Of a stretch of DNA of 64,000 nucleotides, positions 2,782 through 64,000 are shown in pieces. Made by a program: the position numbers and the translations under genes. The DNA is from Psammoneis japonica. Taxonomy: Eukaryota. Numbering within the stretch: position 1 is the first letter of the stretch; each line of letters begins with the position of its first letter. The stretch is from positions 310,001 to 374,000 of the forward strand of contig QPGO01000076.1 in assembly GCA_008632985.1 (NCBI GenBank), in the 5' to 3' direction. Below the pieces are notes generated by a model. The model had not been told where the DNA came from. It saw only the letters and a program-made list of their open reading frames with translations, and did not search any database.

Positions 2782-2966
2782 CGAGTAAATCTGGATGGAG
2801 GGCTATGTTATAATTTGGTGATTGGTTAAGATATATGGATCGAGTGGTGCTGCAGCGACACGCTCACAATCTAATCAGGTTTAGGTTCGCATTGACAGCG
2901 TCACTACTTTCTATTTAGACTTAAAAGGCATCGTGCTTGTTCTTTCGTTGCATCGAGATTTATTCG
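2782..2966 (+). repeat. 5' LTR (TpA retained)
   Basis: 185 bp, CGAGTAAATCT...AGATTTATTCG (11-bp terminal inverted repeat with 1 mismatch). Aligns to 9470-9652. Confidence 0.92.
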
Positions 2967-2969
2967 CTT

Positions 2970-2980
2970 TATCAGAGCCA
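2970..2980 (+). promoter_or_regulatory. Primer binding site complementary to the initiator tRNA-Met 3' region
   Basis: TATCAGAGCCA, 3 nt after the 5' LTR. Matches the canonical TGGTATCAGAGCCA PBS except for the first 3 nt. Confidence 0.65.
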
Positions 2981-3426
2981 AGACGAAAAAGACAGAGCGA
3001 AATGGTTTCGAATACAATTCGTCATGGACGATTGTTTGTTGTGTTGTTTGCATGGAACGTGCAGCTGCAGAAACGGCACTGAACTGTGCTCGATGCGTCA
3101 GAATTCGGATTGATGCGCACGATGATGCGTCTCGTGTCACTTGTTATAATGTCCACAAAAACAGCTTGCAATGGTAACACTCGCAAAGACAGTCACTATC
3201 CTCACATGTGCAACGGGTGTGAAGGGACTGCGGCATTGGGCGACATGCCCGAGCGTGTGCTCAACAATGTCGGTTGACATGAACGACACAGGACTGATCA
3301 CCCTGACGTCGGGTGGCTGTGTGAACCCGTTGTCACAACACAGAGAAAGTGCAGCCATCATGACCATGCAGACTCACAGCTGTGTGTTCCCGGTGCGGGA
3401 CCTTTGCACCCTTTCTCCATCACAGG

Positions 3427-4971
3427 ATGGCAGCAGCGGCAGCACCAGCAGCAGCACTTGCGGCGCTGGCCGCGGCAGCTGACGTTGACGCAGTTTCACA
3501 AGTTTGTGGTGTTGCTGACCAGAATGCAAGGGCGAGGTTGGTCTTCTATGAAGGGTTCACGACTTTGGAAAACATCGCAGTGATGGAGAGTGATCATGAT
3601 GTGGAAGATGTGGTGCAGAGGGCGTCTCGTCGCACGGTGGCCGACGGACGTGTGACTCTTGGGACTGTTCAGATCAAGAACTTGCAGGCGCTAGCATGGT
3701 GGTGCCAGGATTTGCTCAGACGGAATCAGCCATTGGTTGCGGCAGACTTTAATGCAGCAGCCACAGCTGCGGCCCGGAATGGCAGGCGCATCGAAAAGGA
3801 GCGCACGGATTCGGACGCGTCGGCAAGCGGTCTCGTAAAGTTCAAGCCCGATGACTTCGATGTGTGCGAAGATGCTTTCTTGAATCTCTTGGCACAGAAA
3901 TTTGGTGTGTTGAAAGAACCCCTTCGCCATGTTGTGAGGACAATTCCAGCTCCGGCTGCATTCACGGATGCTCAACAACAGCGCATGCACCAGATGCCAT
4001 TGAATGGCGCCGCATGTGACGAGGACAACCGCAGCGTTCACCGTGTGTTGAAGGAACACTTGGTCGACACGGCAGGATGGGCATGGATCAAACTGTTCAA
4101 CGTGACAGAAGACGGACGTGGAGCATTCAACGCATGGGTTGACCATTGCAATGGACAGGGCGAGTTGAGCAAGCGCATCCATCTGGCTGCGGCAACTGTT
4201 GAAACCTTGTTTTGTAAAAAGGAAGGATCGCTCCCGTTCGAAAAGTTCAATGAGAAACTTGCCAGTGCTTTCGCTGCTTTGAACAAATCACCGGATGACC
4301 ACAAATCTGAACGACAGAAAGTTGACATTCTTCTAAAAGGGATCCGAACGGATGACACTCGTCTCATTGCAGCAACGGCTGTCATTGGCAGTCAGCGCCC
4401 TCGTGACTTCACGGGGGCATGTGCTTGTTTCTCATCCGAAGTCTCTCGTTTGCATGCAGGTGCTCAGTTGGAAGCCCGGCGTCACTCGAAGCGCAAGATT
4501 TCTGAAATGAGCCGTGGTGGCAGTGGTGGCCGCGGTTTTTATCGAGGTCGCGGTCGCGGAGGAAGATTTGGACATGGGGGTGGACGCGGACGTGGTGGTG
4601 GCCGTCAAGGCAGAGGTGGCGACCACACTACGATGATCAATGGAGTCGATGCATCCGACCCTACAAGGAGCTTCAGTGCTCAAGAATGGGAAAAGTTGCA
4701 GCACAATGGGGGCATGAGCTGCGTGTTCCAAGCTCGCGAACGAATGGGTCATGGACGCGGTGGTGGCCGTGGGTCTCCCGCAGGTCAACAAGGACGCGAT
4801 GGGGGCGGCAGGCATGCAGCTGAAGCCCAAGTCTGTCAAGATGGCCAAGGCCAAACCCAACAACAGGATCAGGAGCAAAGGAGTGGCGGGCGTGGTCGCG
4901 GCGCTGACCGGGATCACGGTGGACGCAATGGACACGCCTTCGGTCGGGGAGCCTACAATGGTTCCACCTGA
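3427..4971 (+). CDS. gag: Copia gag-like protein (Tyr-depleted)
   Basis: ORF from ATG 3427 after the PBS, with a Gly/Arg (RGG)-rich C-terminus. Only 3 Tyr in ~514 aa. Confidence 0.8.
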   Translation: MAAAAAPAAALAALAAAADVDAVSQVCGVADQNARARLVFYEGFTTLENIAVMESDHDVEDVVQRASRRTVADGRVTLGTVQIKNLQALAWWCQDLLRRNQPLVAADFNAAATAAARNGRRIEKERTDSDASASGLVKFKPDDFDVCEDAFLNLLAQKFGVLKEPLRHVVRTIPAPAAFTDAQQQRMHQMPLNGAACDEDNRSVHRVLKEHLVDTAGWAWIKLFNVTEDGRGAFNAWVDHCNGQGELSKRIHLAAATVETLFCKKEGSLPFEKFNEKLASAFAALNKSPDDHKSERQKVDILLKGIRTDDTRLIAATAVIGSQRPRDFTGACACFSSEVSRLHAGAQLEARRHSKRKISEMSRGGSGGRGFYRGRGRGGRFGHGGGRGRGGGRQGRGGDHTTMINGVDASDPTRSFSAQEWEKLQHNGGMSCVFQARERMGHGRGGGRGSPAGQQGRDGGGRHAAEAQVCQDGQGQTQQQDQEQRSGGRGRGADRDHGGRNGHAFGRGAYNGST

Positions 4972-5051
4972 CTCCTTGGGGTGGCAACAGCTGCTGGAGC
5001 ATTGGCGCATTTGGCACACTTGTCGTTTTTGCTTGTGTTGCTCTTCTTGCT

Positions 5052-8000
5052 GTGTTGACCAAACCCCACCCAACATCTCGTTTCAAAGGAAAGGCGACAA
5101 AGAGGCACATTGCCGTGACATCAAAACGTGTGATCCGATCGACGAGTTCTGCACAGATGACAAATTTGATGACACCTGGGTTTGTCGCTCAAAATGAATG
5201 TGATGCTCACGCGGACACTTGTTGCGCTGGGGCGAACTGGAAGCTCATGGAGATGACAAATGAAGTGTGTGAGGTACATCCATTTCTGGACTCTTGTGAG
5301 CCGATCAAACAGATTCCTGTGGCACGTTGTTGCACCGCATGGACAGATCCGGAAACGACTCGTGAACATTTGCTGGTTGGTGATCAAATGCTCTGGTTTG
5401 GGACCGACATGGAACACTCACTTTTGAATCCTAACCAACTCCGTGCGTGCAACATGCCCGCACACGACAACCCTTGCGACACCCGAAACGGATTTGGCAT
5501 TGAAGCTGATGAAGCTTTCATCCCTTTCAACACCACGGGGACAATTGTGTCTTTCAAGTCTCGTGTTCCAGCGGATTGGGAAGTGCAGAACTTGCCGGTC
5601 ATGCTGTTGACAGGTGACGCATGGGATCCAGCACAGACAGACATGGGCTCACCGGAGCGCGCTAGAGAGCAGGCGGAGATGCGCACTGTTCGATCATTGG
5701 CCTCTGGCATGCGACAAGAACAGGTCTCGGAATTAAGGAGCGAGAAGGCAAAGTCCCAAGCAGCACGCTGGGGCGAGGTCGAAATGCAACTGTCGTCTGC
5801 ATCTCCCATCTGTCAACTTCAATCATTTTGCGACAGGCTTGTCAGCTCAGTGAACGTGGCTTGCACACATCGCGACGACGTGGACAAGAGGCAGAGGGCA
5901 GTCAAAGATTTGTGTGGCAAGGATCGGCACTCGAAGGTTGACGCTGAAGAGCTGGCCCGAAAATGGAATGTCGGTTTAGAAACGGCAAAAGACACTCTCA
6001 ATGTAACAACTCAGCGCGGTGTACAAACGGCGACCCAGCCGATGTCACGAAGAGTGAGGGTGGATCATCTTGACTTGCATCGGAAGCGTCTGAAAGGAAC
6101 ATGGTTTGTGGACACTTTGACATCCAAGGTGAAGTCTTTGCTCGGTGACACGTGTGCCAATGTTTGTGCTCAGGGCAAATTCGTGAAGGTTGCGCCGATG
6201 ACCGCCAGGTCGGAGGCAGGTTCATCTCTTGTTGAATTCACAGACGACATGGGTGCACCAGAACATCTTATGTCAGACGGGGCAGGAGAGTTCACTGGAA
6301 GGAGCACCGAATTTGTGAGACACGCACGATGTATGAGAATGCAATCAAGAACATCAGAGCAGGGTCGGAAGAACCAGAACCAGGCAGCGGAGCGTGAAAT
6401 TGGTTTCTCAGCCAAACGTTGGCGGCTGCGGATGACGAAGAAGAAGGCACCAAAGCGATTGTGGGATTTTGGTCTTGTTTGCGAGTCGGAATTAGTGTCA
6501 TGCATGGCAAGAGGCAGGGATGAGAGGACTGGATGTGAAGAGGTCACTGGGCAGACACCAGAGACAGGCAAGCATTTGGATTTTGGTTTCTGCGACATGG
6601 CATGGTGGTGGGACAGGCCCAACAAGCCGAGTGCAACTGACAATCCTCGAAGGCTTGGACGGTGGCTTGGTGTCTCACACAAAGTTGGCTCGGATGTGTG
6701 CCATTGGATTGTTGCGGAAAGCGGGAAGATTGTCTCCAAAACATCGGTCGAGCACGTGACACAGGCTGATGTGGTGCAACCGGACATTCGCGTCAAGGTC
6801 GACAACTTTAATGAGCAGCTGGAGAAGCAATTGGACGATGCCAACTTTGTCTTAAAAGGCGATGAAGCTGTGCCCACATTCGTGTTGGACGATCTTGCAA
6901 TTGACGGCAACCTTGGTGTGGAGTGTGAGGGCGGCATCACGCCAGAGGACGAAGAATGTGGCAACATGCCATCACCCGACGAGTGACCAGACGACGATGA
7001 CGAGCAGGCAATCGATCAACACCTGGGAATGGAACTCATGTTTGACATCGGAACCAACGGCGAGCGACGTGGTGTTGTGATGAAACATGCAAGAGGACAG
7101 GATGGGCGTCCAATTGGGACTCGGCAACAAAACCCATTGTTTGACACTCGCAAATGCGAAGTGGAACATGCCGACGGAACCACAGACAAGTGTGCAGCCA
7201 ATGTTGTTGCCGAGAACATGTTTGCTCAGGTCGACAGTGAGGGCAACCAGCATTCTATCTTGCATGAAATGCAGGACCACGAGAGGAGTGACGATGCGGT
7301 GTCGATTGCTGATGGCACCGTACGAACCGCTGACGGGAAGGAGAAGAAGAAGATCACAACAAAAGGATGGAAGTCATTGGTCGGATGGAAGGATGGCTGC
7401 TCATCTTGGGTCAAACTCAAAGATCTAAAGGACTCTAACCCCACTGAAGTTGCTGAGCATGCTGTTGCGAACAGGTTGACGGAAGAACCTGCTTTTGCTT
7501 GGTGGGTCACACATGTCCCACGCAAACGGAACCGCATCACATCCAAGGTCAAGAAGAAGTGCTGGTGCACGACTCACAAGTTTGGGGTCTGATTGCCCAA
7601 GTCCACGGAGGACGCTTTGCGGATTGATCAGGAAACGGGGACAGATTGTTGGGCTCGTGCAATCAACAAGGAGATGGCAAAGGCAAAGGTGGCATGGTGC
7701 GAGCACGAAGCTGAAACCCCTCAAGTGGTCCGGGAAGGCAAGAGTGCAACTTTGCGTGGTTGTCAGGAGATCAGGTGCCACATGGTGTTCGACATTAAAA
7801 TGGATTTCACCAGAAAGGCAAGGTTTGTAGCTGGCGGACACACGACAGAGGCCCCGGCATCGATCACTTGCTCCAGCGTGGTTTCCAGAGACAGTGTGCG
7901 ACTTGGATTCTTGTTGGCAGCCTTGAATGGCATCGATGTTGCGGCAATTGATCTGGAGAATGCTTGTCTCAATGCACCGTGCGCAGAAAAGACATGGTTT

Positions 8001-9305
8001 GAAGGCGGAAAGGAATGCGGCGAGTGTGAAGGAAAGGTGCTCATTGTCACTCGGGCGTCACATGGCTCAAAGAGCTCGGGATGCTCTTGGAGGTCTGCAC
8101 TGTCATCGGTCTTGCATGACTCAGGCTTCGAATCAACGAGAGCGGACCCAGATGTCCACTTGCGTGCGGCGACTCGTGAGGATGGGCACGAGTGTTGTGA
8201 AATGCTTTTGGTTTGTGTCGATGACACACCAATCATTTCCCATCAAGGGAAGTCCATTGTTGCTGCAGTGGGTGAACACTGTGCCATGAAGCCCGGCAGT
8301 GAAGGAGAACCAGAAGTTCATCTTGGAGCTAACATTGAGAAGGTTCAGACTCAGGATGGGCACACAATCTGGGCGAGTTCACCGAGGTCACATGTCAAAT
8401 CGGCGATTGAGACTGTGGAAGGCCTGTTGGATGAAGACGGCAATGGAGAGGTTCTGAAGAACAGTGCAAAGGATCCACCACCCCTGAAATGCAAACCGGA
8501 ACTGGACGTGACGGACGAGTTAGGTCCCGACTTGGTGGACAGGCATTTGCAGCTGACAGGGATTTGTCGTTGGGCGATCGAGTTGGGTCGCATCGACATC
8601 TTGCATGAGGTTTCAATCCCATCTCAACATCAAGCTAATCCAAGGAAAGGACATCTTGAGGCATTGCATCGTGCACTTGCGTGTGTGAAGAAACACCAGA
8701 ACGTCGGACGCATCGGATTTGATCCAAAGGAACCGGTGATTGATGAATCTGTTTTCAATTCAAACGCAGACTGGACCGAGTTTTACGGGGACGTCGAGGA
8801 GGAACTGCCGCCACGGGCACTGAAGCCTCGTGGCAATCCGGCGAACATCTGTGCATTTGTTGACGCTAACCATGCAGGGAATGTTGTCACTCGCAGGTCG
8901 CATGGCGGGATTCTGACATTCGTCAATGACGAGCCAGTGGTGTGGTTCAGCAAGCGGCAGAACATGGTGGAATCGGCAACGTTTGGAAGTGAATTGGTTG
9001 CAGTGCGGATTTGTAAGGAATTGATTGTTGCTTTGCATTGCAAGCTTCACATGTTTGGGGTTCCCCTTGAAGGACCGGCAAGTGTCTTTTGTGACAATCG
9101 CGGTGTTGTGAAGAACGCAAGTGTGCCCGAGTCGGTTTTGCACAAGAAGCACAATGCCATCAACTGCCATGTTGTGCGAGAAGCGGTCGCAGCGGGAATT
9201 GTTCGTGTTGGCAAGGAGGACACGGAAACGAACTTGGCCGATCTACTTACGAAGGTGGTTGCAGGAGAGCGGCGATGGAAGCTTTGCTCGTGCATTTTTT
9301 GGCAA
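5052..9305 (+). pseudogene. pol: Copia pol (protease, integrase, RT, RNase H) pseudogene
   Basis: Protease DAHADTCC. Integrase SDGAGEF...NQAAEREI. RT CHMVFDIKMDFTRKARFVAGGH and LVCVDD (YVDD motif, 8214-8225). RNase H FVDANHAG...ESATFGSEL...NLADLLTK. In-frame TGA stops at 6984-6986 and 7590-7592. Likely original stop TAA now reads CAA (9303-9305). Confidence 0.93.
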
Positions 9306-9469
9306 TGTCCCGACACCAAGGCCAGGCACCTGTGGCTCGTGTCCACGTGTCGTGGCCTCCCAAGCCAGCACATCTGGTGGTTTAATTTGGGTTCTTGTGG
9401 TTTGCCTCTCTGTGAGAGGATGTTGCATGTTTGGACGAATCGGCATTGCCATTGCCGTTTCGCGGGGAC

Positions 9470-9652
9470 TGAGTAAATCTGGATGGAGGGCTGTGTCATA
9501 ATTTGGTGATTGGTTGAGACACATGGATCGAGTGGTGCTGCAGCGACATGCTCACAATCTAATCAGGTTTGGGTTCGCATTGACAGCGTCACCACTTTCT
9601 GTTTAGACTTGAGGCATCGTGCTTGTTCTTTCATTGCATCGAGATTCATTCG
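9470..9652 (+). repeat. 3' LTR (TpA-mutated copy)
   Basis: Aligns end to end with 2782-2966, with 13 substitutions and one 2-bp indel. Confidence 0.92.
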
Positions 9653-9815
9653 GTGGATGTGTGATTCCCCAAATTTGTCGTTGCTGACCCTGTCGAATGA
9701 TCCTGCCTGCCACACAAACAGCAACCTGATGAACGTGCACATGCCAAAGGAATCATTGCATGAACATTCATCAGTGTGACAGACTGGTGGCTGTGATGCT
9801 GCTGCCATCAGAAGG

Positions 9816-9940
9816 CTGCTCACACCCAGGCAGGGAGAAAGTGACAATGCAGATTGTTTGGCACACAGGCAGAGCTGCGGCCCAAGCAACTCGACAGTCT
9901 GCTCACACCCGCTCAGGGAGAAAGTGACAACGCAGATTTG
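9816..9940 (+). repeat. Short direct duplication (~40 bp x2)
   Basis: CTGCTCACACCC..CAGGGAGAAAGTGACAA.GCAGATT at ~9816 and ~9899. Confidence 0.7.
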
Positions 9941-10374
9941 CGCAGAGCCCGTTGGTCTGCGGCATTTTCAGCACATGTTTTACATGCGCAATTTTCTGCA
10001 CACTTCACAACAGCACACCCTCTCCCCAAAGTTTGAAAAATGAGAGCGCGCGCTGTCATGACTCACATGGATCCTGCGTGTGGTCATGAATCTGCAAATC
10101 GACAACCGGCCATGGCAGCAAAAGACTTTGCCCTGTTGGCCGATGACAGCAGCTCAATGCATGGTGAAACCTGCCATCCTTCTGGTTGGTCAAGGTGGGG
10201 TTTTATTTGGGTGCAGCTTGAGTTTCGTGATTGCGAGTGTGCTGCCACGAATCTGCTGCATCCAGAATGCTGAGCTGCTGGTGTGTTGTTTTGTGTTGTG
10301 TGCACGCATGTCACAAACTTGCTTTTCTGCAGCATTGGCACAATCACGCACATCAGAGTTTTGCACCCAAAATC

Positions 10375-10680
10375 ATCACAAGTTGCCACAAACTGCACTG
10401 TTCAAACAAGGCATGCACAAAAAGAGGTTCATTGGTTTTTGGTGCATTCGCCAACAACACATCCATCTTCTCCAATTTCTACATCCAGATCCAGAAAGAC
10501 TGCAGGTGGTGCTTGTTGCTGCAGCTCTCAGAGTTGCACACATGAAAAGTTCTTTGCCACATGTGACACTCTTCAAAAAAGGCATGCACAGAAAGAGCTT
10601 CATTTGTTTTTGATGTGTTCACTTGTGTTGCACCCGTCTTCTCCAATTTCTGTGTCCAGATCCAGAAAGGCTGCAGAGCT
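10375..10680 (+). repeat. Diverged tandem duplication (~170-bp period)
   Basis: TTCAAA.AAGGCATGCACA.AAAGAG.TTCATT...TCTTCTCCAATTTCT...TCCAGATCCAGAAAG.CTGCAG at ~10401 and ~10572. Confidence 0.75.
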
Positions 10681-11039
10681 GAGAGTGGGAAGGCAACCCA
10701 TTGGAGGTTGCCTGAGTTGTTGGGCTCATTTTTAAAGACTTCCTAAGTCTCTCTGCTGTTTGTGGTCCATGCTCTAAACATGTCATCAATGAACCATCCA
10801 CAGCATGGGAGGTGCGGGGCAAATTCAGTCATTGCCACATGACTTTGTTGTTCACGCAGCGCCTTGTGCAGTGTGGCACACATGCAGGTGGTGCTTGTTC
10901 CCACAGCTGTTCCAGTGAGTGCATTGTGTGGCACTTAAAATGTTTTTTGCTTGCTCACATGCTTTCTTTCTGCATTTTCTTTGAGTTGCAGGGGAGGAGC
11001 TGGGTGCTTGACGTCTCACACCGCACACCGACACCCATG

Positions 11040-11420
11040 TTGCTCCGGAATCAGTGGCGCCAGATGCACTGATGCACCGGCAAGTGTGTGTTGCAGTTCA
11101 TGTCAGTGCATCTACATTGTGCTCTCACAATGTGCACTGTGCTTTTTGGCAATGAACAAGGTGGATCAGAGGAGCAACAGCACTTCTGCTGCAAACTCGC
11201 CTGCTCCAGAATCAGTGGCATTGGACACACTGACATGTCCATGTTGCCATTCCTGTGGGTTGTGTTGGTTGACACTCTCACAATGTGTTTTGCTCTTTTT
11301 GGCAACATGTGAGGTGGAACAGAGCAATGGCACTTCAAACACTAAAACAGCAGCTCCTGCTGCAAACACACCTGTTCCAGAATCAGCAGTGCCAGATGCA
11401 CCTGTCGACCTGTGTTTGTG
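11040..11420 (+). repeat. Diverged tandem repeat, ~165-bp unit, 2-3 copies
   Basis: TCC(G/A)GAATCAG...(C/G)AGA motif at ~11045, ~11205 and ~11376. CTCTCACAATGTG...TTTTTGGCAA...AGGTGGA repeated at ~11122 and ~11275. Confidence 0.65.
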
Positions 11421-13534
11421 AGTGTGAGCCTTGGTGGACCAAGGAGGGCAGTGATGCCATTTAACTCCCACGCCGGTGTCAACTGGAGTGCTGTTGGCAG
11501 CATCTCCACTTGGCTTGTTTTGTGTCTCTGGATGGCAAGCCTTGGGCATCATGGTGTTGTTTCCATCTGCGTTGTTTAAATTAAATGCAAACAACAAAAT
11601 AGAATGTGCACAATGCAAATGATTTTAAATTGCAGGTTTTGCAGGAATTGAGGGCGGGCACTCTCACAGGGAAAATGGTTGGCTGTTTCACAGCGAATGG
11701 TGTTGTCTCACAGGACAGCAGTGGGCTCCACAGCAATGAAGTTTGTGTCTTTCATGGTTGACAAAATGTCACCACACACACAACTGACAAGGTTTGAAGC
11801 CACAAAATTTTTAACTGTGACAGATTGAAAAATTCACTGCAAGAAAGTCAGTCTGATCACTGCGCTGCGCGCTCTGATGGACAATGCCCTGCTTTTGAAT
11901 GCAGCCAATGACATGTGGATTGCTTTCAATGCACAGCCCACATTTTGATTTTATTTCTTGCAAAAGTTGGCTGCAATCTTGATTGGTCTGTGGACGCTGC
12001 ACACACACGCTGAACAAATGAGAAATGAGTCCTGTGGACTTGGTGCAGCGAGAGACAGTTTTTTTTGTTTTTTTGGTTTCCAAAGATGTTTGTTTTTGTG
12101 TGTGGTCATCACTTTGGGGCAGTTTTCTTCTTGTTGAGAAAATGTTGTGCCCTGGCTGGAGCATGGGCAACTCACTTTTTTTTTAAACCTTTTCTTTGTG
12201 GCATTTTTTTGTGGCAGAGTTCAAGACAATTGTTGTGCATGTGACTGTGAACAACATCATGTGAGTCAACAAAGTTGTCATTGTTTTGTGGGTCACCTGG
12301 TGCTGGAGCGTGCCCCAGAAAGGTGCCATTCGCCAGCAACAGTGGTGTGCCAGAGCTCCCAGCAAATTTGAAGAAAGTTGGCCCAGAAACCACCCCAGAG
12401 AACACAAAGGAGAGATCACAGGCTGTTTTTAGAGCCAGCAGCAGCAGCAGCCGCAGCAGCTGACCCAGAAACATGCTCTCACCCCAGAAGCATGTGTGGT
12501 GAGCAATGAAGCACCGTGCACCACCTCTTCCAGAGCCCCCCTCCCACGGCATTCTTTTCGAGCGACGGCACCTTCTCTCAAATGCTGGTGCCTCCCATGC
12601 ACGTGTTTCAGCTGATTTCCAAACTTCAAAGCACCTGACCTCTACGGTGACATCTGCTCTAGAACATGACAAGCATGGAATACATGCAGTCTTGTTGGCA
12701 TCACTGTTCACAATAAAACTCTGCCACATGTTGTCCCAGCGGTGGATGCGATGCGAGAGATGTGGCGGCCGCCTGAACCCGACAAGGCCAGACGGATGAT
12801 TTTAGTCCAATTAATCAACTGAAATCGAATATGACGTCAGCTCGTGCTGAAAAACTTGGCGAGCGCAATTGATTCGTGATGTCCATTGTACAGAGCTCTC
12901 CTACTAGGACGCAACGGGCAAATGTGTCACTCACAGAAATCAAACAGCCCCAATACGAAGCTCGCGCTTTTCATCGCACTCTCCATCAACGCGGAAGCAA
13001 CACGACTTTTATTGTTCTCACTTCTCGTTCATCAGGCGCTTTGTGAAGGGAAGTCAGTGCTGACCGGTTGCTCTTTCGTCTGTGATTACACGGAAAGACA
13101 ATGGCGGTGCGAACGTTCGACACTGATACGGCGGGCCAGCGGGTAACGACGCTGGTGCTTTCTAAAAAGAATGTGTTGGATTAGGACGAGGAGTTTCTAC
13201 TTTTGATGCTCGTCGGGTGCGGCCCACCTACACAAATATCACGTTCTCCTCGTACGTCAATCGAGAATTGATCCAGAATCCTTGAGTCAGGACTGGGTTG
13301 AAAAACGACTTGCTCCCTCCCCCCCCCAAACTTTTGTGGCTCAGCGGACGCCTTACCAAACCTTTGTGTTTGGACCGTTAGAGATGGACGTCTCGACCTA
13401 TCTGTTCTTTACGTTTTTTCGTTCGTTTTGCCCTGTCGTCTACCCAAAAGAAACTCACAAACTCGTTGTCTCCTTGTATCTCTCAACAGATTGTCACGTA
13501 CGATGGTGGTGAAGAAGAAGCTCGTAGGCAGGCG

Positions 13535-16147: not shown

Positions 16148-16871
16148 GGTGAACGTTGTACAGTAAGAGTGATGACTACCTATCGTGATGGTCTTCGCCA
16201 AAAAGTGACCGCAACGTTGAACGTTGTCGCTGTGTTTTCAACCACATACTTTCGCCATCATACGTCACCTCGTCATCCACGTGGATGTGAACGGGGGTAA
16301 TCTCTAGTAATAGGTTATGAGGGTAGATTCGATGGTATCTTTTTTTCAGACTGGGAGACGCGCAACACATGACCAAACTAGCGAGAACATGAACAGGTAT
16401 TTAGAGTAGAAGTAGTAGCCTAACTTTGACAGACGCCATCTTAGATAAAAGAGCATCAATACTATGAATTGAGGTTAAAAGGGTAATCTCCACTACGGCG
16501 ACTGATCAAAGTGGATCGTTTTGGTCGGAGGGACCAACCAGCGCAGTGCTCCCCGTCACCGACATTCAAGGATCCAAGCCCCACTTGTGTCTACGGCTAT
16601 GAGAGTTGGGCTTGTTCTCATTTTCGTTTTAAAGCATTGCATGATTCTTTTATTCATTTTTCTAACAAATTTTAACAAGACATTGTGTTGCGTGAAATCC
16701 TGAACTGTTCGCGAGAAAACCTCAACTGTTGAATCTTGCATCAGAGAGTATGGTACAAGGAGTTGTCAGCACAATCCACTCCGACTGAATAACGAGAGCG
16801 AAAAGAACACATCAACGTTGTTATACCACAACACACATCAACACCGGAACTTGCTTCTACTGTATGAAACC

Positions 16872-17720
16872 ATGAGTCCGCCTCGTTTGAACTCGCCCGA
16901 AGAGGAAGAAAGCGTCCACTACGACAACAACAGTCAAGTCTGGGCCGTCTTGTCGTCTGTGTTACCTGATAGCACCGATGCCGGCACGTCTCAAACGCTC
17001 TTTGGGAGAGCTGAAGTCACGTTCAAGTCAATTCCCCGCAGCTGGGGAACCAAGGTCGATGCAGTCAAGAAGATTGCGATGAAGCACTCACAACTGTTGA
17101 AACACATTGCGTTCGCTGTTCTTGTAGGTCTCAACGTTGGCCTTCTCCTGAAGTCTGGCTTTCACGCAACCAAAGCAACGGATTTTGATCCGGTTGGTAC
17201 CCTTGCCAGGATTGAAAAAGAACACCAAGAGACCCACCTCAAGCTGCAACATGAGATTCTCCAACAGGAGCAGATCATCAAGTCGGCGAACGATCGAATC
17301 GCCTTTTTGGAACAGCAAATGGACTCGATTCCTGCTTTGGAGGTCAAGGAGGTAGAGCCAGACGAGCCCCCGCCACCCGTAAGCTGCTTGGAGAAAGTGA
17401 CCGCGGATATGCGAGACTCCTTAGGCACATTTGCGCGAGCTACCGAAATGGTCTACTATAGGAGTGACAAGGTCGAAGCAGCCGAAGCACTCGCTACGGA
17501 GATTCAGTCCTTCTTGGAAGTGTTTGACACTTGCAGTGACACGTACGAGAACTTGACGAACGAAGCTGAACAGTGGAAGACCGAGACTGTCAAGCTCGTC
17601 CGTCGTGTCGAAACGCTCAAGCAACAGAAACGTTTCTTTCACATGGTTGTTACCTTGAATGCTCTGGTTTGCGTGGCGGCTTGGTGGGCCTTTGCCTTGA
17701 AGAAGAAAAAGGTGCTCTAG
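16872..17720 (+). CDS. Hypothetical coiled-coil protein with two TM segments
   Basis: Intact ORF with coding-like composition. Hydrophobic helices near aa 80 and at the C-terminus, the latter followed by KKKK. Confidence 0.7.
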   Translation: MSPPRLNSPEEEESVHYDNNSQVWAVLSSVLPDSTDAGTSQTLFGRAEVTFKSIPRSWGTKVDAVKKIAMKHSQLLKHIAFAVLVGLNVGLLLKSGFHATKATDFDPVGTLARIEKEHQETHLKLQHEILQQEQIIKSANDRIAFLEQQMDSIPALEVKEVEPDEPPPPVSCLEKVTADMRDSLGTFARATEMVYYRSDKVEAAEALATEIQSFLEVFDTCSDTYENLTNEAEQWKTETVKLVRRVETLKQQKRFFHMVVTLNALVCVAAWWAFALKKKKVL

Positions 17721-25314: not shown

Positions 25315-25329
25315 GCAGCAGTCCTAATT

Positions 25330-28300
25330 GCACGTGGGTGCCGTGGTGGGGCTCAGGGCTGCTGCTTTGCCAAGATCGGTGCTTTTGCTGGCAGCGATTG
25401 TCGTCGTGTTGTGTTGCTTGGCTTGATGCTTGATGGCAAGGCTGTTTCTTTTGCTTTTTTTTGTCAGCCAGCATTGAAACAGCCACTCAACTCCTCCTGC
25501 TGCAAGAGAGCAACTCTTGACACTCCTCTTGTTGCTTCATGTGCTGCCTCTTGTTTGAGGCTTTTTGTTCAGCCACACACCTCTTTCCTCTTTCCTGCAC
25601 TCAACAAAAGATGGCTCAACTTTTCTCCTGAAAGAAAGGGGGGTTGCTTGCAAGCCCAAGATTTGTTGTCATGTGTTTGAGGGGGCAGAGCTCTGGAAGC
25701 TGCAAAAGCTGACAAGTGCAGCCCAAGAACCAAGCACAAAAGCCATCATGAATCCACCACAAGGCAGGTGCTTGCACCATGAATGCAAAAGGCTTCTTGT
25801 TTTTGTTTTTGTACAATGACGAGGGAAAGAAGGGGCACTTGGCTCTGTTGAATCATTCAAAAGTCTGGTTGCTGAGTGAGCAGCACGTGCCGCCAAGTTG
25901 CAACCTTTCTCCTCAACAAACTAAAGTGTGATTGCCTGTGCAGGCCAAAATGATGGCTGCATTTGAAGAGTGGCTGGGCACAACCCAGCAACAAGCCACT
26001 TTTCAAACAAATGAAAATGGCGGTTTGCACCACAGTTGTCAACATGGTGAATGGCTGCCATGATGGCAAATGCCAGCAAGTGCACAGTCTGCAGCAGCCA
26101 AAGAGTGCACCTGGGTGTGTCTCATTCTGCTGCATTGAGCAACTTTCCCTGCACCGGCTGTGTGATCCTCTCCTGCAAAAGCGTTTCTGAGGCAATTTTC
26201 ATCATGCTGGGCCATGCACAAATTTGGCACCTGGTCTGTCTTTTTCAAAAAATGCACAGACTTCGGCCCTTTCCCAGGTGGGAGCGGACCTCATTGGATC
26301 ATGTCGCATTGTGACAGCTCCTGGTCTTCAAAGTGACGGGCATGGTCCACACTCACAGCATTGTTGTGTGCAGGCAGTGATGGTTTGGTGTGGCGCTGGC
26401 TGATGGCTCCTTTGGATGGGCTCTCATGACAAAAGGAGTGCTGCTGGCAGACCACAAAGGTGCAGTGTTTGGACAGCTGTGGTCTCATCACACCAAACAG
26501 AGGCTTGTGGCATGATGCTGCCCTTCTGTCATCTCACATTTCATTTTTTTTAGCTCTGTGGGGCAGTGGCCAGCAGTGCAGGAATGGCGCCAGCACTTGC
26601 AGCAACAATTTGTTGGCTGAAATGGTGAGTCAACTTGATTGACCATTCCTTGCTGCCAGCTCAAGCGCCATCACCACACAAATGAGACAGAGAAGCTGAC
26701 TTCCACATCATGCTCATCAATTTTTTTGGCAAATGCTCTCTCTCTAGACTGGGGTGCTGCCAAAAAAATTTGCAGTGCACTGGTCAAAATCAGGGCATGC
26801 AAACAAGTTGAGGGAACCTCCAGATCACTTGCAATTCTCAAGTGGGTGAAGGGTCATGAAGGCAGTCAAGCCCCAGCTCATGCACCCTTCTGTGGAAAAT
26901 GACAACAAACACCAGACCCAACAAGATTGCTGTGGCAACTGCCATGGCATGTGCTCATGCTGGACCACATTTTGCTCCTGGATTCCCACACAGCTCTTGA
27001 GCCTCATTGTTGGCAAAGCTGCTTTGGCATCCTGCTGCAAGATGAAAATTTGATTGCAGCTTTTGCCCCCTTCTTTGACACACACACACACACAAAAGCA
27101 CCCACAGACAGATTGAGCTTGTGTGACCAAAATTGACTGGAAAGTGCTCATGGCTCTCACAAGCCATCACATCAGAAAACAAGTGGTGTCCACCACAAAA
27201 CTTGAGCAAGACCTCTCTCCTCCTCTTCCCACCAGCAAGATTGCACACTCCTGACGCAGCTCAGCATGACCACCAGACTGCTCCTTTGTTCAAGCAAAGC
27301 ATGAAGGAGAGGCAAAGGCACATGTGCTGCACAGAGTGAAGACAACTGCCAGTTGCTTTGGTTGGGTGCCACAAAGTCAGCACTGGGACAGGCCAGTCTG
27401 CTTTCAATTTTGTCTTGCTGCTGTGCCATGTGCTGAAAGTGTGGGTCAGCCTGCTGCTGGGAGTGGCTGGGAGCGTTCTTGCCTTGGTGCACTGCAGGGT
27501 CTTTGGGAGCAAACATGGGCATCCTCCACCAGTTTGTTGCAAGGCTTGCTCTTCTGGCATGCAGACAATCTCCAAGTGGATCAATGGACTTGACACAATC
27601 ATCCAAGTTGACACTGTGCAGCAGCTGATGCTTGGGTGGTGGGTTGTGCACCTCTTTTTCTTCTTGCTCAGGAGTGGCACAAGCAAGTCCAGGATTCTTG
27701 AGTTTTGGGGGCTTTGTGTGATGCATTTTGGTTTGTGACAATGGCAGCAAAGTCTGGCATGCTGTTGTTGTGCAACACACAAGAACATGTGCAGCACCAA
27801 GTCCTTGGTTCAAAGGCAGGGTGATCAAAGTAGATCTCAAAAAACTTCAGGGGCAAAAGAAGCAATCAAAACACAAGTGGTTTGTTGCGTCCTCCTTTGC
27901 ATTGGCCAGAGCAGCTCTTTGCACTTTCAGCAACACAAAAGATGATCTTTGCTGTTGGTGTTTGGTCAACCACTGGCATCCCTTCTTGGAAATGTCTTTG
28001 GGAGAGCAGGAGAGGAAGAGAAGGCTTGCCGCCCTTTCCAGATTTCCAGCCTTGAGCTTGGGCATGTTTTGCTTCAAAGGATGTCTTTTCGCTGGCACGT
28101 GCATGCAAACATGCAGCTGAAACACTAAATCAACAATCAAACTGGCAACAAAGGAGGCAGCATTTGTCTTGGCAGCCATGCCAAATTGCTTGTCACTTGA
28201 CAAAAAAGAATGACATTCAACCTCAGCAAAACAGAGGAGCAAAGAGGCTCCCACAGCAAGAGAGGTGGAGCTGGCGCTGGCAGAGGCAGCAGCCAAGCTG

Positions 28301-31300
28301 TCAAACTTCTCAAGCTTGGAAAAGCCTTGGCAACATGACAAAAAAAGGAGATTTGAGCTCCTGTGTGCTGCACCTCAGATTTGAAAAGCTTTGACAAGGT
28401 TTGCCTGGAAGTCAGCAGGAACAAATGGCTTGCCTCTTTAGCCTTGAAGGTTCTCAAGTTTTGGGTGGCTGCCATGAATGTGAGAGATGACTTTGCCCTC
28501 ATCTTCTCCAACAAAGTTGGCAATCGTGTCATTGGCTGTGGCAGCAATCAAGCAACAAGAAGCACCTCCTTCAGAGTTGCTGTGCAGTTGCTTCATCATG
28601 ACAGCAAAGAATGGGGAGCCACCCTGCTTCCCAATTGTTGACAAGTCAAATGGGTTTTGTTGACTTTTTTCTCAACAGCTTGAGAAGAAAACTTGTTGAC
28701 AAGGCAGACATGGGCAAGATGCAGACTTGTCAAACTTCCATGGGTTCCACTGGGGTTCTTGGCCGCCGATGTGCCATGCCACTTGTTGCTTGCCACCACT
28801 TTGGCAGTTGCCAAACATTCCATGCAAAGGTTGTGGGGGTCTCAAGGGTTGAAGGATTGACATTTTTGAGGAAAATGTTGCCCATGTCATGCACAGTGTG
28901 ACTTGACTGCATGGGGCCAAGATGAACACAGCCAGGTTGCAAGTGTCTTCAAGCTTGCCAGGGTCTTTGATGTCGACAATGAGGAATTCAAATTTTTCAT
29001 CTGTGCTGGGCCCAAGCTGTCTCTCTGGGCTTTGGTGTGAACCCTTGTGGTTTTTTCACCTGCCAGCCACTGGCAGGGCTTCCCCTGTCATGCCAGCCAC
29101 CACACCATGGCAATGCCATGCAGATGTGTTGCCCCTTGAGCATGCCATTGCATGTGTGTTCTGAACCTGCCTGCTCTGTCTGCATGTGTTTCCCATGCAC
29201 TGGGCAGCTGACTGCACACTGCAGAGCTCACCAGCTGGCCATGTGCCCCACAACCAGGAGGACGCTGATGTCAGCATGGCACTGTGTGAAGAAGTTGCAC
29301 CCTGGGATCCACCACCTGGACACACAGCACAGCAGAGTCCCGCCCAAGTTCTCACTTTCACACTTGCTGCATCTGCTGGCATGCTGTGGGGCAATGATCT
29401 CCCCGCAGGCTGTGAAAGTGCTTGAGAAGGCTCTGGCTGTTGCGCCAATTGATGATGAGCTGCTGGGTGCTGGCAGTGCCAAATGATCAGATGCTGAATG
29501 CAGTTGATGCACAGTTTGTCAGGTGGGATGAGTTGGCATTGTTGTGAGGCACTGTCACTTTTGAGGGAGAGGCTGACACAGTGTTTTGTCATGAAGGCAG
29601 TTGGAGTGTGATGTGCACGTGCTCACAACCTGCCATGAACTCAGCTGAGTGCTGCAGCTGGGCTGTTGGTTCAGTGCAAGAGACAGCACCACAAACAGCT
29701 GGGTTGGCTGCAATGGGTGGCATTGACATGCTCTTGTTGTTGCTGCTGCCAGCACTGACTGTGCTGGGCAACAAGATTGTGAGCAAAAGTTGAAGCACAA
29801 GGCTTTGAGCAAAGACAGAGAAGCATCAGCAACATGAGTGAACTGCAGGCATTTTCCAACATTGCTCATGGATGCCAGACATCAGAGTTTGCGTGCTGTG
29901 TCCTTGAGCAACAGCCTCCCTTTAGAGAGTGGTTCAAGGTGACTCTGTCACAAAGCCAATGTTTGCAAGGTTGCATGGCCAGCTCTTTGTTGTTGTCGCC
30001 ACATGCTTTGCACATGGACTCAAGAGTCAATGTGCCAAGCTCTTGCACCTTGTGCTCACAGAAAAAAGAAATCAACAAAGTTTTGCCCAAAGTCAACTCA
30101 TCTGACAAAACTCACTCTCATTTCATTTGCAAATGGACGTGTGATCATTCCTGCACAAACCAAATGCTTGGTGATGCTTGGCTGGCTTGAAAGTGGCAAG
30201 CAACCCCAGTGTGCAAAAGATCCTTTGCTGAAAGGTCCAACAACCCAAAGTCAAAAGAAGATGAGGGCCAAACTGAGCTGGAATGTTTGTGGTGCACAGA
30301 ACCTTTTGTGTGAGCAATGTGTGCAATCATCACCTTCCATCTTCTTGTTTGAAATTGGTGCAAACATTGATTGGGGGAGATGATCATGACCAAAGAGTGT
30401 GGCACGCCTGTGTGTCCTCATGATCTAGCACCCAAGTTGATTGCCTGTGTTTGAGGTCAAAAGCAAAAACACAAAGCTCCATCAACAGACCGGACAGTGT
30501 TCCCTGGTGTGGATGGAGTGTGGGGCAAGTGCTCAGATCAAACTGGAGATGCTGCCAACCACATCAAAGCAACACAATTTTGATCCTGTGGATGCTTTCA
30601 AGTGGGGTGTGGAAGGTGTTGAGTTTGGTGTTCTTGAGACTCTCTTTGGATTGTGGATTTCACGTGCTGGTGAGACTGTTTTTTGTGGAGTGACTCTGTC
30701 AATTTTTTGTCAGCAAGAGCCTCCGGCAAAAAGCCACACAGCAATTCAAAGTTGCTGGTTTTGTCAGAATTCATGCCTCCTGCAACAAGGAGGAAGAAGT
30801 TTGCAACACCCATTTCAGCATCATCTGGAGTGGAGTTGTGTGGTGTTCTGGGACATTCGTGTTAAAATGCCCACAGTTTGGACAGAGAACCTTGTGACAC
30901 CACCACTTCTCACTCTCACATGAAGCAACGATGGCATTGTAGAAAAGGACATGGTCTCTCTTGACAGCTCAAGCACCCAGCAAGACATTGTGTTGGCCTG
31001 GAGTTTGTGGAACTTCACATGCTCAAGTCCATCCAAGGAATGCAAGCCAAACAATGCCTGCATGGCCGGCTTGTTTCCTGCTCCTCTGAGCCTGGAGCTC
31101 TTGAAAAAGCAAGCAAACGATTTCGTGAGCAATGTCCTCATCAAGGATTTGTCCTCCATGACCTCTGCCACTCACTCATCAATCGTTTCTTCTTCGACAC
31201 TCTGGACAATGTCAGTGTTGTCGCAGGACCGCTTTGGGACCTTCCTGCTTCATCACTGATGGTTTCTTGAGTGACAAGTTCATGCAGTTCAAGTCGAAGC

Positions 31301-34300
31301 CGTCAACGTTCGTGAGGGACTGAGGCGGTTGGTGCCACAAGCTCACAATGGTTGTCAAAGGATGACATCACAGTCCATGCGATTGACAACTTCAACTGAT
31401 TGTGCTGTGAAACTGCGCCGAACTGCCATGAGCTTGAAGGTGGTTCGTGAAGAATTTTCACAGCAATTTGTGCAACAAAAGTTCAACGATGCCTGACATG
31501 TTCAAAACTGCATCAGCGCAATGGGATGTGTCATTCTGGTGGAAGGGAAATGTCGCAGATGCAGCATGAATGTAGTGATGGCCCAAGTTGTGTGCCACAG
31601 GTCCACAAATTCTGCCGCTTTGTCCCTCATGCATGAACTCAACCACTGTCATGTTGCCTTGTTCCCTTGATGGAAGCCAAAGCATGTTAGTCAAACCTGC
31701 ACCATGCCCACCAATCAGAGCATGTGCCTTGCTAAAATGGTTGGCACAATCTCTGGGTGAAAAGTTTGCAAGCTCTGAATCAGAAAAAACATTGAAAGAG
31801 ATGTTTGTGTGCATCTCTTGGAGTCTTTCAACAAGGGCCTTGAAATTCCGAACTCGATGCGTGCTTTGTCTTTTCAATGCAACTGTCTTTGTGCGAGTGG
31901 GAGGATTGGCATGACTGTCGGGTGCAGCTTGGTGCAGAGCCATCTGCAACAATCTGGCATTTGCTCGACTGGGGTCCGGTGGCATCAGAGCAGCTGGACA
32001 AATGGTGTCTTGCACCTTGGAGCATTCATTGAAACCTTGGCAGCTTCCAGAAACCGTCGTGTTGCAAAGCAAAAACTGGAGATGCAATGAGTGAAAGGAA
32101 AACTCACTCGGAGCAAAGAGATCCATTTCATTGTTCTGAATGTGTCATGCAACAAGGGATTTCGATGTTGCAAAATGACCCAGAACTTCACAAATGAAAT
32201 GAAAGCATGTTGCGCCATGATTGTGTGAGAGCGAGACAAGAGGTCAGGCATGGTTAGAAGCCCCAAGGGTGAAGTGTTGTCCAGGTTTGTAGAGGACTCG
32301 ATCTGGGCAGCACCCACCACTCACATCGTGTGCGATTCGAGTCACAGTGTCCACAACTGCCCCCCTTCGATCAACAATTTGAGCATCTTTCACGACGAGC
32401 ACCGCATCTTCTGGAGGGCATTTTGTTCCATTGTCAGAAAGTTTCTCGCCACACAAAAATGCCATTCTTGACTCTGATGACAGGCAATCTTGCAGTTTCT
32501 TCCACGAAAAGGCAAAACAGTGAGAATCGACTTCGTCCCTCTTTTGAATGACTTTTGTAAAGTTCAGGGAGGCTGCTCGTACTCTAGAAACAGGGCTCAG
32601 CAATGTGGAGTGTGCCTCTTGCACTGCAGCCAGATTCCGGCAAAGTCCAAATGCAGCCAATGCTGCCAGGCCCACAAGAAGCAAAGCAAGCACCATTTTC
32701 TTTCTCACAGCAGGTTCATCATCTGTCCACCCATGCTGTGCTTGGAGCAACCGGCTCGCGTGACAAAAGCAATGAGCCTCAGCACCGCAACAGGAGGCAG
32801 GCTGGCGAGGTGTCACCCAAAGACTTGTGTGCACAAAGAACCCACTTGAACCAGAGTGTTGTGATGGGATCTGGCATTGTGCATTTGTTGACAATGACAG
32901 TTTCTTTTTGGGCATTGGAAAAATTGGAAGTTCTGTGCAAACTTGCCCTCTCTCTGCTGAAAGGGCGCATGTCATCAACAAGAAGAAGGTGCCACAGCTG
33001 CTTGCCAGAGGAGAGGGTGGGGGAAAAGGAATTGCACTGCACACAACAAGCAGCTCTGTTTGTCCACTGCCACTGCCTTCTCCAGCTTGATGGGGGGTGG
33101 CTTTCCAGCTCTGGGTGTTGGGATTTTTGGATGTTTGCCCTCTCCTGCTGCGGAGCTCCAGGCCAGAGTCATCGCAAGCTCCCCAGCAGCTGTTGCACCA
33201 GGTGACAAGCACACCCATTTTTTACATCAAAACAAATGACCACTCTGCAGTGACACAACACCTCTCCACACTCAAAATTTTGGAAAATCTGTGTGCATTG
33301 TTGTGCTCCAGCCACAGGTGTCAGAGGGGCAGCACAGCTGCAACACACATCAGCATCAAAGGTTGTTGAGTGAGTCATGGCTCAACAACTGCACTGCAAG
33401 CTGGTGCAAAACAAGTCCAAAGTCATGCGGAAATGCACCTGAATCCTGCACTGAGACACAAAAATGCAAAATGTTGCTGTTCCCTGTGCTGCGAGCCTCC
33501 TTCAAGCTGGAGCTCATCTGGGATCAGTGGGGGAGAGACAAGCTTGCTCTGCACAGGCTGTTTTCCAGGGCTGACTTCAAAGACAAAAGAGCTCCTTCAT
33601 CCAACAACTCTGGCATTTTCAGTTTTGCTCATCTGGGCAATCCAACAAGATGCCAGGACAGTGGCAAGGAGCACAGCACTGGCAACAAAGGAAAAGTGAG
33701 TGGAGGGTCTCAGAGAGATTCAACCACTGCTGTCTGCACAATGCACTGATGTTGTCTGTCTCTCTGAGTGTGCACATGACACACACAGCAGTCAAAACAC
33801 TGCCACCCTTCCCTGATGAGCAATCCAGGTTGCTGGTCAAAGAAGAAACAATGTCTGACAGGGAGAAAGAGCAAGACAGACAAAGGAGAATTGCTCACAA
33901 AGGGGTCTTTCAACAGCACCTGCAAGAGCCAAAGCAGACAGCAGTTGGCTGAGTCAGCCACAGCAACCCATCAATTGGCAAGAATGACCAGCATGGAGAG
34001 CCCAACCAGCCACCTTTGCAAGCACAACAGCAGAGTCAATGACTTGAGGAATGTGCCCAGCAATGATTTTCTTCTCTTCCTGCTGCTCTTGAGTGGCAAA
34101 CTTCATGACATCAACATGTTGCATTCACTTGGTGAGGGCACTTGAGAGGTGCTTCTGCTCTGAGGTGATGGGTGAGAGTGACATGCTCAGCTGTCAGCAA
34201 GATTTCATTCCTCAAAAAGAAAAGAGAGTTGTGCTTTCATGATGATTTGCACATGATGGAAGACACACTTTGCACCAGCCAAGCAGAAAACCAGATCTGT

Positions 34301-34600
34301 TTTTAAAGTGCGGTCACTCCCTTGCCGGCCATGCCAATGCAGACTAACCCACACTCCCAGGCACTGAGTGTTCTGTTTGACCATGCAGCCTCATGGCTTC
34401 CTGAAGCTGGGGAGGAGTGAAGTGGCCCAACGACCCCTCCACTCACGAGGAGTCTGTCTTTCATTTGCATTTCAGCTCTGAAAAAATAACCCAATTCGAT
34501 TCATCGTGTGTGCGCAGGTCCGTCATTTGCACAGAAGTGAGCCACTCTGATCCGCCACTTTGCTCAGTTTTCCAAAGATTCGTTCAACGAAAAAAAAATC
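25330..34600. other. Large TpA- and CpG-depleted domain containing decayed coding sequence
   Basis: Kilobase stretches with almost no TA or CG, strong TG/CA excess and many Cys/His/Gln-rich spurious ORFs. Contains a GT61 pseudogene. Confidence 0.75.
31458..32696 (-). pseudogene. Glycosyltransferase family 61 (DUF563)-like pseudogene
   Basis: N-terminal anchor MVLALLLVGLAALAAFG, HNHGATCFHFICEVL (eroded NYFHF-like motif), IGGHGAGLTNMLW...VVE. Single frame with TGA stops at 32244-32246 and 32145-32147. Confidence 0.75.
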
Positions 34601-34843
34601 TTTGTGAACCATGTAGATCTTTGGCTTACAATCTACATACAACGAATATCTTCTACTCGTTCCTACTCACCAATAAATGGAGTGGCGCTACATCAGTAGA
34701 ACACCGTTACTTCGTTCAGAGGCTCACTGAATAAAGACGCATGTTAAAAGAGGACGTCCACAAATGTCGGGTGGTCAGCGTGCAGATACTCTCCTATGTC
34801 TAGATGATAGCTAATGGAAGTTGATAGTACGCGTCTTGCTAGC

Positions 34844-63900: not shown

Positions 63901-64000
63901 GGAACCCCGGAACATGCAGAGTTACAACAAGCTGCTGGTTTTGGGTGCCGCACTCCACTTGGTGAATTGTTGTGTGCGCATGTTGTCTGTCGATTGGATG
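57981..64000 (+). mobile_element. Second degenerate Ty1/copia retrotransposon, running off the window end
   Basis: Putative 5' LTR at 57981-58151 (TG...CA) followed by PBS-like GGTCATGGCC. gag ~58330-60230 with a C..C...H...C knuckle. Protease QLDAGA, pre-integrase WHQRLGHP, integrase, RT EFKQLDQF...QVDDF. Multiple stops and frameshifts. TpA-depleted. Confidence 0.88.
59257..59653. mobile_element. 397-bp MITE with 24-bp TIRs and ATGA target-site duplication, nested in gag
   Basis: GACGCGTTCCAG(CC/AC)(C/G)TAGGTGGGA-type TIRs, 22 of 24 matching. ATGA at 59253-59256 and 59654-59657. Excision restores gag TRDERKSPAVQKK. Confidence 0.9.

Follow-up and report, generated by a model that had tools for sequence, protein, structure and literature searches.

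The window analysed here is a 64,000-nucleotide stretch of the genome of the diatom Psammoneis japonica (GenBank assembly GCA_008632985.1, contig QPGO01000076.1, positions 310,001 to 374,000 of the forward strand), and all coordinates are given within it. Positions 2783-9652 are a dead copy of a Ty1/copia (CoDi-like) long terminal repeat (LTR) retrotransposon in which the dinucleotide TpA (TA) has largely been replaced by TpG or CpA, and whose pol translation has been left with a single tyrosine. When the window was compared with itself, the two LTRs were the sole strong direct repeat (92.4% identity over 184 columns). The short sequence just inside the 5' LTR resembles a Copia primer-binding site and is presumably complementary to the 3' end of initiator tRNA-Met, as in Copia elements. 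GTGG is common to both sides of the element; the LTR ends are uncertain, so a target-site duplication would match at no more than 4 of 5 bp.

The last piece of pol matched the Pfam family RVT_2 (PF07727), the Copia-type reverse transcriptase (RT), with E=2.2e-09 and a score of 37.7 bits (cut-off 31.6). Among public proteins the RT part had 1008 relatives at E<=0.001 with identities of up to 68%, and PF07727 was present in all but one of the 120 RT relatives listed; one relative listed is a gene model of Cyclotella cryptica (P0117). The protease-integrase part had 5057 relatives among public proteins. No Pfam family was found in 4908-6983, where no integrase model matched the recoded sequence, and this part aligned along its length to long polyproteins that continue into the RT part. 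The features of the element and of the altered DNA around it, including its open reading frames (ORFs), are listed in Table 1.

Table 1. Features of the retrotransposon copy and of the TpA-depleted DNA around it (window coordinates).
Feature	Position	Strand	Details
5' LTR	2783..2966	+	Self-BLAST partner of 9471-9652; not hypermutated; 14 TA, observed/expected 0.91
Primer-binding-site-like sequence TATCAGAGC	2970..2978	+	Exact match just 3' of the 5' LTR
TpA-depleted tract	3015..12797		67 TA among 2038 TA+CA+TG sites; observed/expected 0.12; element body, 3' LTR and 3.1 kb of older repeat DNA
gag-like ORF	3364..4971	+	535 aa, 3 Tyr, without Pfam match
pol frame	4908..9302	+	Probable protease, integrase, RT, RNase H order, from alignment; interrupted by two TGA codons; RVT_2 Pfam match
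In-frame TGA	6984..6986	+	Arg in 7/7 close relatives; fits CGA>TGA at CpG
In-frame TGA	7590..7592	+	Arg in 5/7 close relatives (other two Lys, Gln); Arg in 8/20 relatives with a residue there
RT catalytic box, CVDD in place of YVDD, TGTGTCGATGAC (TGT GTC GAT GAC)	8214..8225	+	Tyr in 18/18 relatives with a residue at the column
Sole remaining pol Tyr codon, TAC, context TTAC	8784..8786	+	Translation and column alignment
CAA at the relatives' termination position, then 57 read-through codons into the 3' LTR	9303..9476	+	TAA 9474 ends the frame
3' LTR	9471..9652	+	Hypermutated; 4 TA remain, observed/expected 0.32; CA or TG faces the TA of the 5' LTR at 9 sites
Older flanking DNA	9653..12797		TpA 0.11 and CpG 0.34, both lost; part (11818-12802) single-copy

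Translation of 5052-9476 (1475 positions) yielded 1 Tyr, 58 Cys, 56 His and 3 stops (TGA 6984, TGA 7590 and TAA 9474), in agreement with the initial annotation of this DNA, which had reported one Tyr in the pieces of the pol ORF. Tyr makes up 0.07% of the element's pol compared to a median of 3.8% in the 120 RT relatives listed. The residues now standing in place of Tyr were read from alignment columns, with 22 relatives and columns of at least 70% Tyr for RT/RNase H, and with columns of at least 60% Tyr for the whole of pol. At the 16 RT/RNase H columns the window has Tyr once, Cys at 10 and His at 5. At the 28 whole-pol columns it has Cys at 14 and His at 8, with Phe at 2 and Val, Ala, Trp and Tyr at 1 each, so that the tabulation of Tyr-to-Cys/His changes proposed in the annotation gives 22 of 28. 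Each of 16 relatives retains Tyr at 16-20 of 20 of the same columns. The numbers of Cys (14) and His (8) did not reveal a significant strand bias in Tyr replacement (p=0.29). All six motif changes that the annotation had quoted were present in both translation and alignment: CVDD in the catalytic box and, compared to the majority of relatives, TYSSVV to TCSSVV, NAYLNAPC to NACLNAPC, ALYGLKSSG to ASHGSKSSG, NAINYH to NAINCH and AEYAVAN to AEHAVAN. CVDD is not a variant shared with intact relatives, since Tyr stands at the YVDD position in all relatives scored there (Table 1) and the sole Cys carrier seen, the predicted protein P0018, is itself Tyr-erased. The annotation held that Tyr erasure inactivates Pol; Tyr loss alone may do so, but its effect is inseparable from those of the two TGA stops and the ~90 other substitutions.

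The loss of Tyr is caused by a deficit of TA at the DNA level. The element interior (2967-9470) contains 43 TA where 357 are expected (0.12), whereas CA and TG stand at 1.55 and 1.48 and CG at 0.87. The pol frame (4908-9302) has 27 TA against 248.5 expected, and 29 are found in 4908-9476 (4569 nt). Relative to 74 environmental relatives from metagenomes, in which TA occurs at 46.6 per kb, the element has 7.0 per kb, and therefore ~85% of its TA has been lost. Observed/expected TA is ~0.7 in these relatives and 0.6 in the host DNA of the window. Compared to both the normal DNA of the window and the 74 relatives, the only dinucleotides that have shifted are TA, CA/TG and, where the DNA is older, CG. 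At conserved columns with Ile, Leu or Val, 15 of the 16 xTN>xCN substitutions end in A (ACA, TCA, CCA or GCA; p=1.7e-7 against a null of 0.3), which is what xTA>xCA predicts and which supports the view that Tyr was lost as a side effect of an A:T>G:C change specific to TpA. The 115 substitutions at 607 conserved columns divide into 45 on a TpA path, 11 on a CpG path and 59 on neither, the last including ordinary lineage differences. The spectrum is not that of repeat-induced point mutation (RIP), where C>T at CpA raises TpA: TA is at 0.12 and CA/TG at ~1.5, and the relatives show that the TA-bearing codons are ancestral.

Whether a TA survived depended on its flanking bases. Relative to the 74 relatives, survival in the element was 0.046 for RTAY, 0.143 for the mixed contexts and 0.41 for YTAR (R, purine; Y, pyrimidine). 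The same order was obtained against the normal DNA of the window, from 0.009 for ATAT to 0.36 for TTAA (chi-square on the distribution, p=8e-18), and the effect was seen in four of the six larger tracts. By hand calculation, the three context classes fit an additive two-strand model. Both Tyr codons start with TA and sit in the favoured T-A-pyrimidine context, which accounts for their near-total replacement; that they are always T-A-Y partly explains why Tyr was lost more fully (22/23) than TA overall.

The same dinucleotide specificity has consequences for stop codons. Codon-context enumeration revealed that TpA>TpG/CpA never makes a stop from a sense codon, and that under it TAA becomes CAA or TGA and TAG becomes CAG or TGG, in line with the earlier claim that TpA targeting removes TAA and TAG stops. 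The pol frame stayed open because the change cannot create stops and removes TAA and TAG. The only stop that CpG decay can create is TGA from CGA; RIP-type changes make TAA and TAG. The initial annotation had placed the two internal TGA codons at expected Arg (CGA) sites, which the Arg residues of the close relatives corroborate (Table 1). It had also read CAA 9303 as a lost TAA that gives read-through, and six of seven close relatives indeed terminate one column before this codon and one a residue later, marking the natural end of pol. Across the window, six-frame stop density was 37.9 per 1000 codons in normal DNA and 26.5 in depleted tracts, where TAA and TAG dropped to 1.7 and 1.5 (from 9.4 and 9.3, respectively) and TGA climbed to 23.3 (from 19.2). 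The density of ORFs with at least 100 aa increased from 2.67 to 3.58 per kb and that of ORFs with at least 150 aa from 0.97 to 1.55, a contrast that is somewhat understated because the normal segments hold real genes. The rise in spurious long ORFs described in the annotation is thus real, but at 1.3-1.6-fold it is modest rather than a flood. ORFs in the depleted tracts contain 0.12% Tyr, 5.4% Cys and 4.7% His; that such hypermutated ORFs seed genes de novo, as had been suggested, is speculation.

To delimit the altered DNA, we segmented the 64-kb window with a two-state hidden Markov model (HMM) and computed a 250-bp profile. The HMM called eight depleted tracts with sharp edges, covering 32.5 of the 64 kb. 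The element's own tract starts ~50 bp past the 5' LTR and extends 3.1 kb past the 3' LTR. The large depleted tracts are all without host-gene Pfam domains and two of them hold Copia sequences, while ORFs with host-type Pfam domains in the window all lie in normal segments. Summed contig depth was ~1200-2300 over the element and ~60-105 over unique flanks, with 2063 in the bin that holds most of the 5' LTR. Inside the tract, 11818-12802 was represented by one contig at a depth of 63, like the unique flanks, yet it is TpA-depleted.

These limits bear on a homology-triggered, RIP-like process with a different chemistry, in which repeats would be sensed and then mutated. Such a process would suit the multi-copy state of the element and the confinement of the large tracts to DNA that lacks host-gene domains and in two cases carries Copia sequences. 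We nevertheless consider it improbable. The 5' LTR is repeated and has kept 14 of its 14 TA, whereas the 3' LTR has lost 9-10; 11818-12802 is depleted at single-copy depth; the edge of the tract falls inside the element and not at its end; and the chemistry is reversed, with TA destroyed rather than made and no stops created. A repeated LTR that was spared and a now-unique segment that was mutated argue against a RIP-like homology sensor and favour a positional cue. The cue may be silent chromatin rather than sequence homology.

A second alternative dispenses with a dedicated deaminase. At WA motifs (W, A or T), Pol eta introduces A>G errors, and error-prone repair synthesis of this type at methyl-cytosine deamination mismatches in methylated repeats could erode TA. 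The older TpA-poor tracts are also CpG-poor (CG 0.20-0.64), so that both processes have occurred in the same DNA. A WA spectrum should, however, erode AA as well, and AA/TT stands at 1.15 in normal and 1.20 in depleted segments, with AG/CT likewise unchanged (AG 0.97 and 0.99). The element has lost ~85% of its TA with CpG kept at 0.87, and TpA loss is therefore independent of prior CpG decay. Across the tracts, CpG ranges from 0.20 to 0.92 at similar TpA loss, suggesting that TpA erasure is faster than CpG decay. We regard repair errors as a very unlikely source of the signature.

The LTR pair provides the timing, as the two LTRs of one element are identical at integration. They now differ by 12 substitutions and one small indel. 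At nine of the 12 substitutions, TA in the 5' LTR faces CA or TG in the 3' LTR, and none shows the reverse; the remaining three pair CpG with TpG/CpA, and one of these falls at the uncertain edge of the LTR. One-directional differences after an identical start indicate that mutation took place after insertion, on DNA, and exclude RNA editing before reverse transcription. Of the nine TA-site changes, five are T>C and four A>G, the two types alternating along the LTR, and Cys and His follow each other along pol in 11 runs where 11.2 are expected (hand count). Each site was therefore changed independently, on either strand. In contigs of other copies, from a public sequencing run, TG was found where the window has CA at 3928/3929 and 7874/7875, so the same ancestral TA was resolved in different ways from copy to copy. 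Among copies, transitions account for 256 of 302 variant places (X1), a spectrum read as totals plus a few examples, with 40 of 312 places listed. With the LTR pair 92% identical and 0 of 12 substitutions outside TpA or CpG, the insertion is much younger than LTR divergence suggests.

The timing, strands and extent of the changes leave little room for A-to-I hyper-editing of the transcript at the RNA level (ADAR- or ADAT-like), fixed by reverse transcription before integration. The element replicates via RNA, and A-to-G change with a 5' U/T preference is the known ADAR neighbour rule, as noted in the discussion of a preprint on the alga Bigelowiella natans (Mettrop et al., bioRxiv 10.64898/2026.01.13.699255). 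Against this, LTRs that were identical at integration differ at nine TA sites in one direction; both strands have changed, in the LTR as in pol, though only one RNA strand is copied into DNA; the depleted tract extends 3.1 kb outside the element transcript; and the preferred 3' neighbour is a pyrimidine, not G. RNA editing as the origin is hardly credible. That TA scarcity and low Tyr are simply native to the element lineage, through codon usage or selection against UA, has a negligible probability: TA is mildly low everywhere, including the host DNA and the relatives, but the relatives keep Tyr at the same columns and in YVDD, the frame has two stops and a lost terminator, and non-coding LTR and flank share the TpA loss.

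Collectively, these results suggest that the copia LTR retrotransposon was converted after integration by a DNA-level TpA to TpG/CpA process that acted tract-wide and on either strand, a reading to which we give a probability of roughly 0.8. It builds on a signature, a direction in coding sequence, a post-insertion timing, tract limits and a flanking-base dependence that the data demonstrate. Under this reading, the process would turn TpA into TpG or CpA with one hit per site. Tyr codons, both TA-initial and in the favoured T-A-pyrimidine context, would become Cys (TGY) or His (CAY) almost completely, and ATA, TTA, CTA and GTA codons would become ACA, TCA, CCA and GCA. Ordinary CpG decay would have added the two CGA>TGA changes, and the natural stop would have been lost and then read through. 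The process would work on a chromosomal tract rather than on the element, sparing the 5' LTR near a host gene and including 3 kb of older flank. Its agent would most likely be a deaminase acting on DNA adenine and requiring a 5' T, as proposed in the Bigelowiella preprint. A far wider proposal, which we regard as possible but doubtful, is that diatoms own a chromatin-guided DNA adenine editor (TadA/ADAT2-like, with a 5' T and a favoured 3' pyrimidine, which would echo the U33-A34-C35 anticodon-loop substrate) as part of a SAR-wide (stramenopile and rhizarian) genome defence. Such a defence would disable transposon proteins by missense only, leaving Tyr-free, Cys/His-rich frames in catalogues and inflated LTR-divergence ages.

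Several points weigh against post-integration conversion of the tract as we read it. The direction of the LTR changes is taken from coding evidence by parsimony, and a source copy that was damaged beforehand could have passed on part of the TpA loss. Of 14 TA, the 3' LTR has lost 9-10, whereas Tyr codons lost 22 of 23. Copy number is expressed as summed contig depth and not as read counts. The flanking-base analysis presumes that the ancestral mix of contexts was like that of the reference DNA, and an excess of YTAR was not shown in two tracts with few survivors (5 and 14). Tyr codons that follow a pyrimidine hint at a preference for a 3' pyrimidine on the strand that is edited, the T-A-Y strand having changed in 9 of 11 (9:2), although this is not significant (p=0.065). 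Strong TpA depletion (<=0.2) was found in none of 80 environmental relatives (range 0.30-0.92), a metagenome sample that favours well-conserved copies and from which, for that reason, no conclusion is drawn on how widespread the process is. Finally, both the enzyme and the targeting cue are matters that we infer.

The remainder of the window contains further depleted tracts and several host genes. The most extreme tract, 25329-34612, has 23 TA among 2099 TA+CA+TG sites (observed/expected 0.04; CpG 0.20). A second Copia-like element runs off the end of the window at 59643-64000, with TpA at 0.05, CpG at 0.64 and an SH3_retrovirus Pfam match in ORF 62070-63155. Between two depleted tracts lies a small insert, 59257-59653, with 24-nt inverted ends (92% complementary), TA at 0.84, CG at 1.49 and a GC content of 39%. 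It resembles a miniature DNA transposon, either inserted once the DNA around it had been mutated or able to escape the process. The TA-normal island that it forms, 59272-59637, had been considered as a second spared 5' LTR; this was rejected because the island is a separate small insert with inverted ends, and it therefore does not replicate the spared-LTR result. Two short depleted calls, 16973-17345 and 53339-53988 (374 and 651 bp), fall inside long ORFs without Pfam matches, 16704-17720 and 53025-54092, and could represent small patches of mutation or artefacts of coding composition. In the older flank of the element, a 123-bp direct repeat (10383-10505 and 10554-10676, 77% identity) coincides with the highest contig depth of the region (4200-5600) and belongs to a very abundant repeat.

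Host genes border the element's tract. Divergent to the element lies a gene for a beta-propeller protein (Pfam E=6.9e-101), and the 5' LTR starts ~130 bp upstream of the probable start codon of this gene. Near the opposite edge of the tract, the adjoining host ORF 13382-14182 matches the ADP-ribosyltransferase families PF03496 (E=1.5e-12) and PF01129 (E=2e-11) and has a normal TA content. A plastid-type enolase ORF (34844-36088) is 84-92% identical to the matches listed, and those whose organism is readable from the name are all from diatoms, including Chaetoceros, Thalassiosira, Nitzschia and Phaeodactylum.

Since no stops are created, dead elements keep long ORFs, which gene finders based on ORF length will annotate. 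The annotation risk raised at the outset is real, as models with less than 1% Tyr occur among the relatives in public catalogues (1 of 120 RT matches listed and 5 of 150 protease-integrase representatives). P0018 (684 aa, 59% identical to the window RT) has 0.29% Tyr. Of 16 Tyr columns, 13 are recoded to His or Cys in this protein, and at the 10 sites mutated in both it made the same choice as the window at 5. The pol-related predicted proteins P0018, P0185, P0263, P0225, P0247 and P0154 all have less than 1% Tyr, with Cys plus His raised. Gene calls elsewhere thus already include hypermutated copies. Tyr-free, Cys/His-rich gene models offer a cheap screen to flag hypermutated DNA, and LTR dating is misled by TpA hypermutation.

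The closest known system is that of Bigelowiella natans. Mutation-accumulation lines of this alga, according to the main text of the preprint (Mettrop et al., bioRxiv 10.64898/2026.01.13.699255), yielded 231 mutations in two viral regions integrated in the genome, of which 230 were A>G or T>C changes, all located at TpA. A DNA adenine deaminase of ADAT2-like type was proposed there, not demonstrated, and RT and DDE domains were enriched among the TpA-depleted genes. [quoted passage not shown] They differ in host and target: B. natans is a chlorarachniophyte (rhizarian) whose viral DNA is hit, while here a diatom (stramenopile) has an LTR retrotransposon and old repeat DNA altered. They differ also in extent, with observed/expected TA of 0.04-0.12 here, near saturation, against 0.45 reported for the nucleocytoplasmic large DNA virus (NCLDV) region of B. 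natans, and in kind of evidence, which is a footprint here and de novo mutations measured there. A term search of the preprint's main text returned no mention of flanking-base dependence, Tyr loss, stop-codon logic or diatoms. Literature searches that included papers on diatom transposons and methylation, with subscription journals and preprint supplements outside their scope, found no description of TpA hypermutation in diatoms.

Among other systems, RIP in Neurospora and other ascomycetes is likewise a dense, transition-only, dinucleotide-specific mutation of DNA in place that ruins transposon genes. In contrast to the changes described here, which destroy TA and create no stops, RIP converts CpA to TpA (C>T), raises TA and creates TAA and TAG. 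RIP also senses duplication, whereas here a repeated LTR was spared and single-copy DNA was mutated. ADAR, acting on double-stranded RNA, and APOBEC3, acting on retroelement cDNA, similarly leave deaminase-type clusters of transitions that disable retroelements, and ADAR prefers a 5' U. Their substrates are RNA or single-stranded cDNA before integration, and one strand is affected, unlike the post-integration change seen here, which affected both strands site by site and reached into the flank. With the CoDi retrotransposons, as described in the available text of Maumus et al. (2009, PMC2806351), the element shares its short LTRs, its diatom host and probably the Ty1/copia arrangement of the domains in pol; the copy here differs in being dead and recoded, and a term search of that text did not find TpA, hypermutation or YVDD. 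The diatom case is a second lineage and a new target class of a recently described hypermutation, and not a new kind. If the reading is true, the rewriting of TA in silent DNA by diatoms would be a genome defence with a chemistry opposite to that of RIP. Reported once before, in an unrelated alga, TA rewriting would then point to a wider system, perhaps an ancient one, and to a naturally occurring editor of adenine in DNA.

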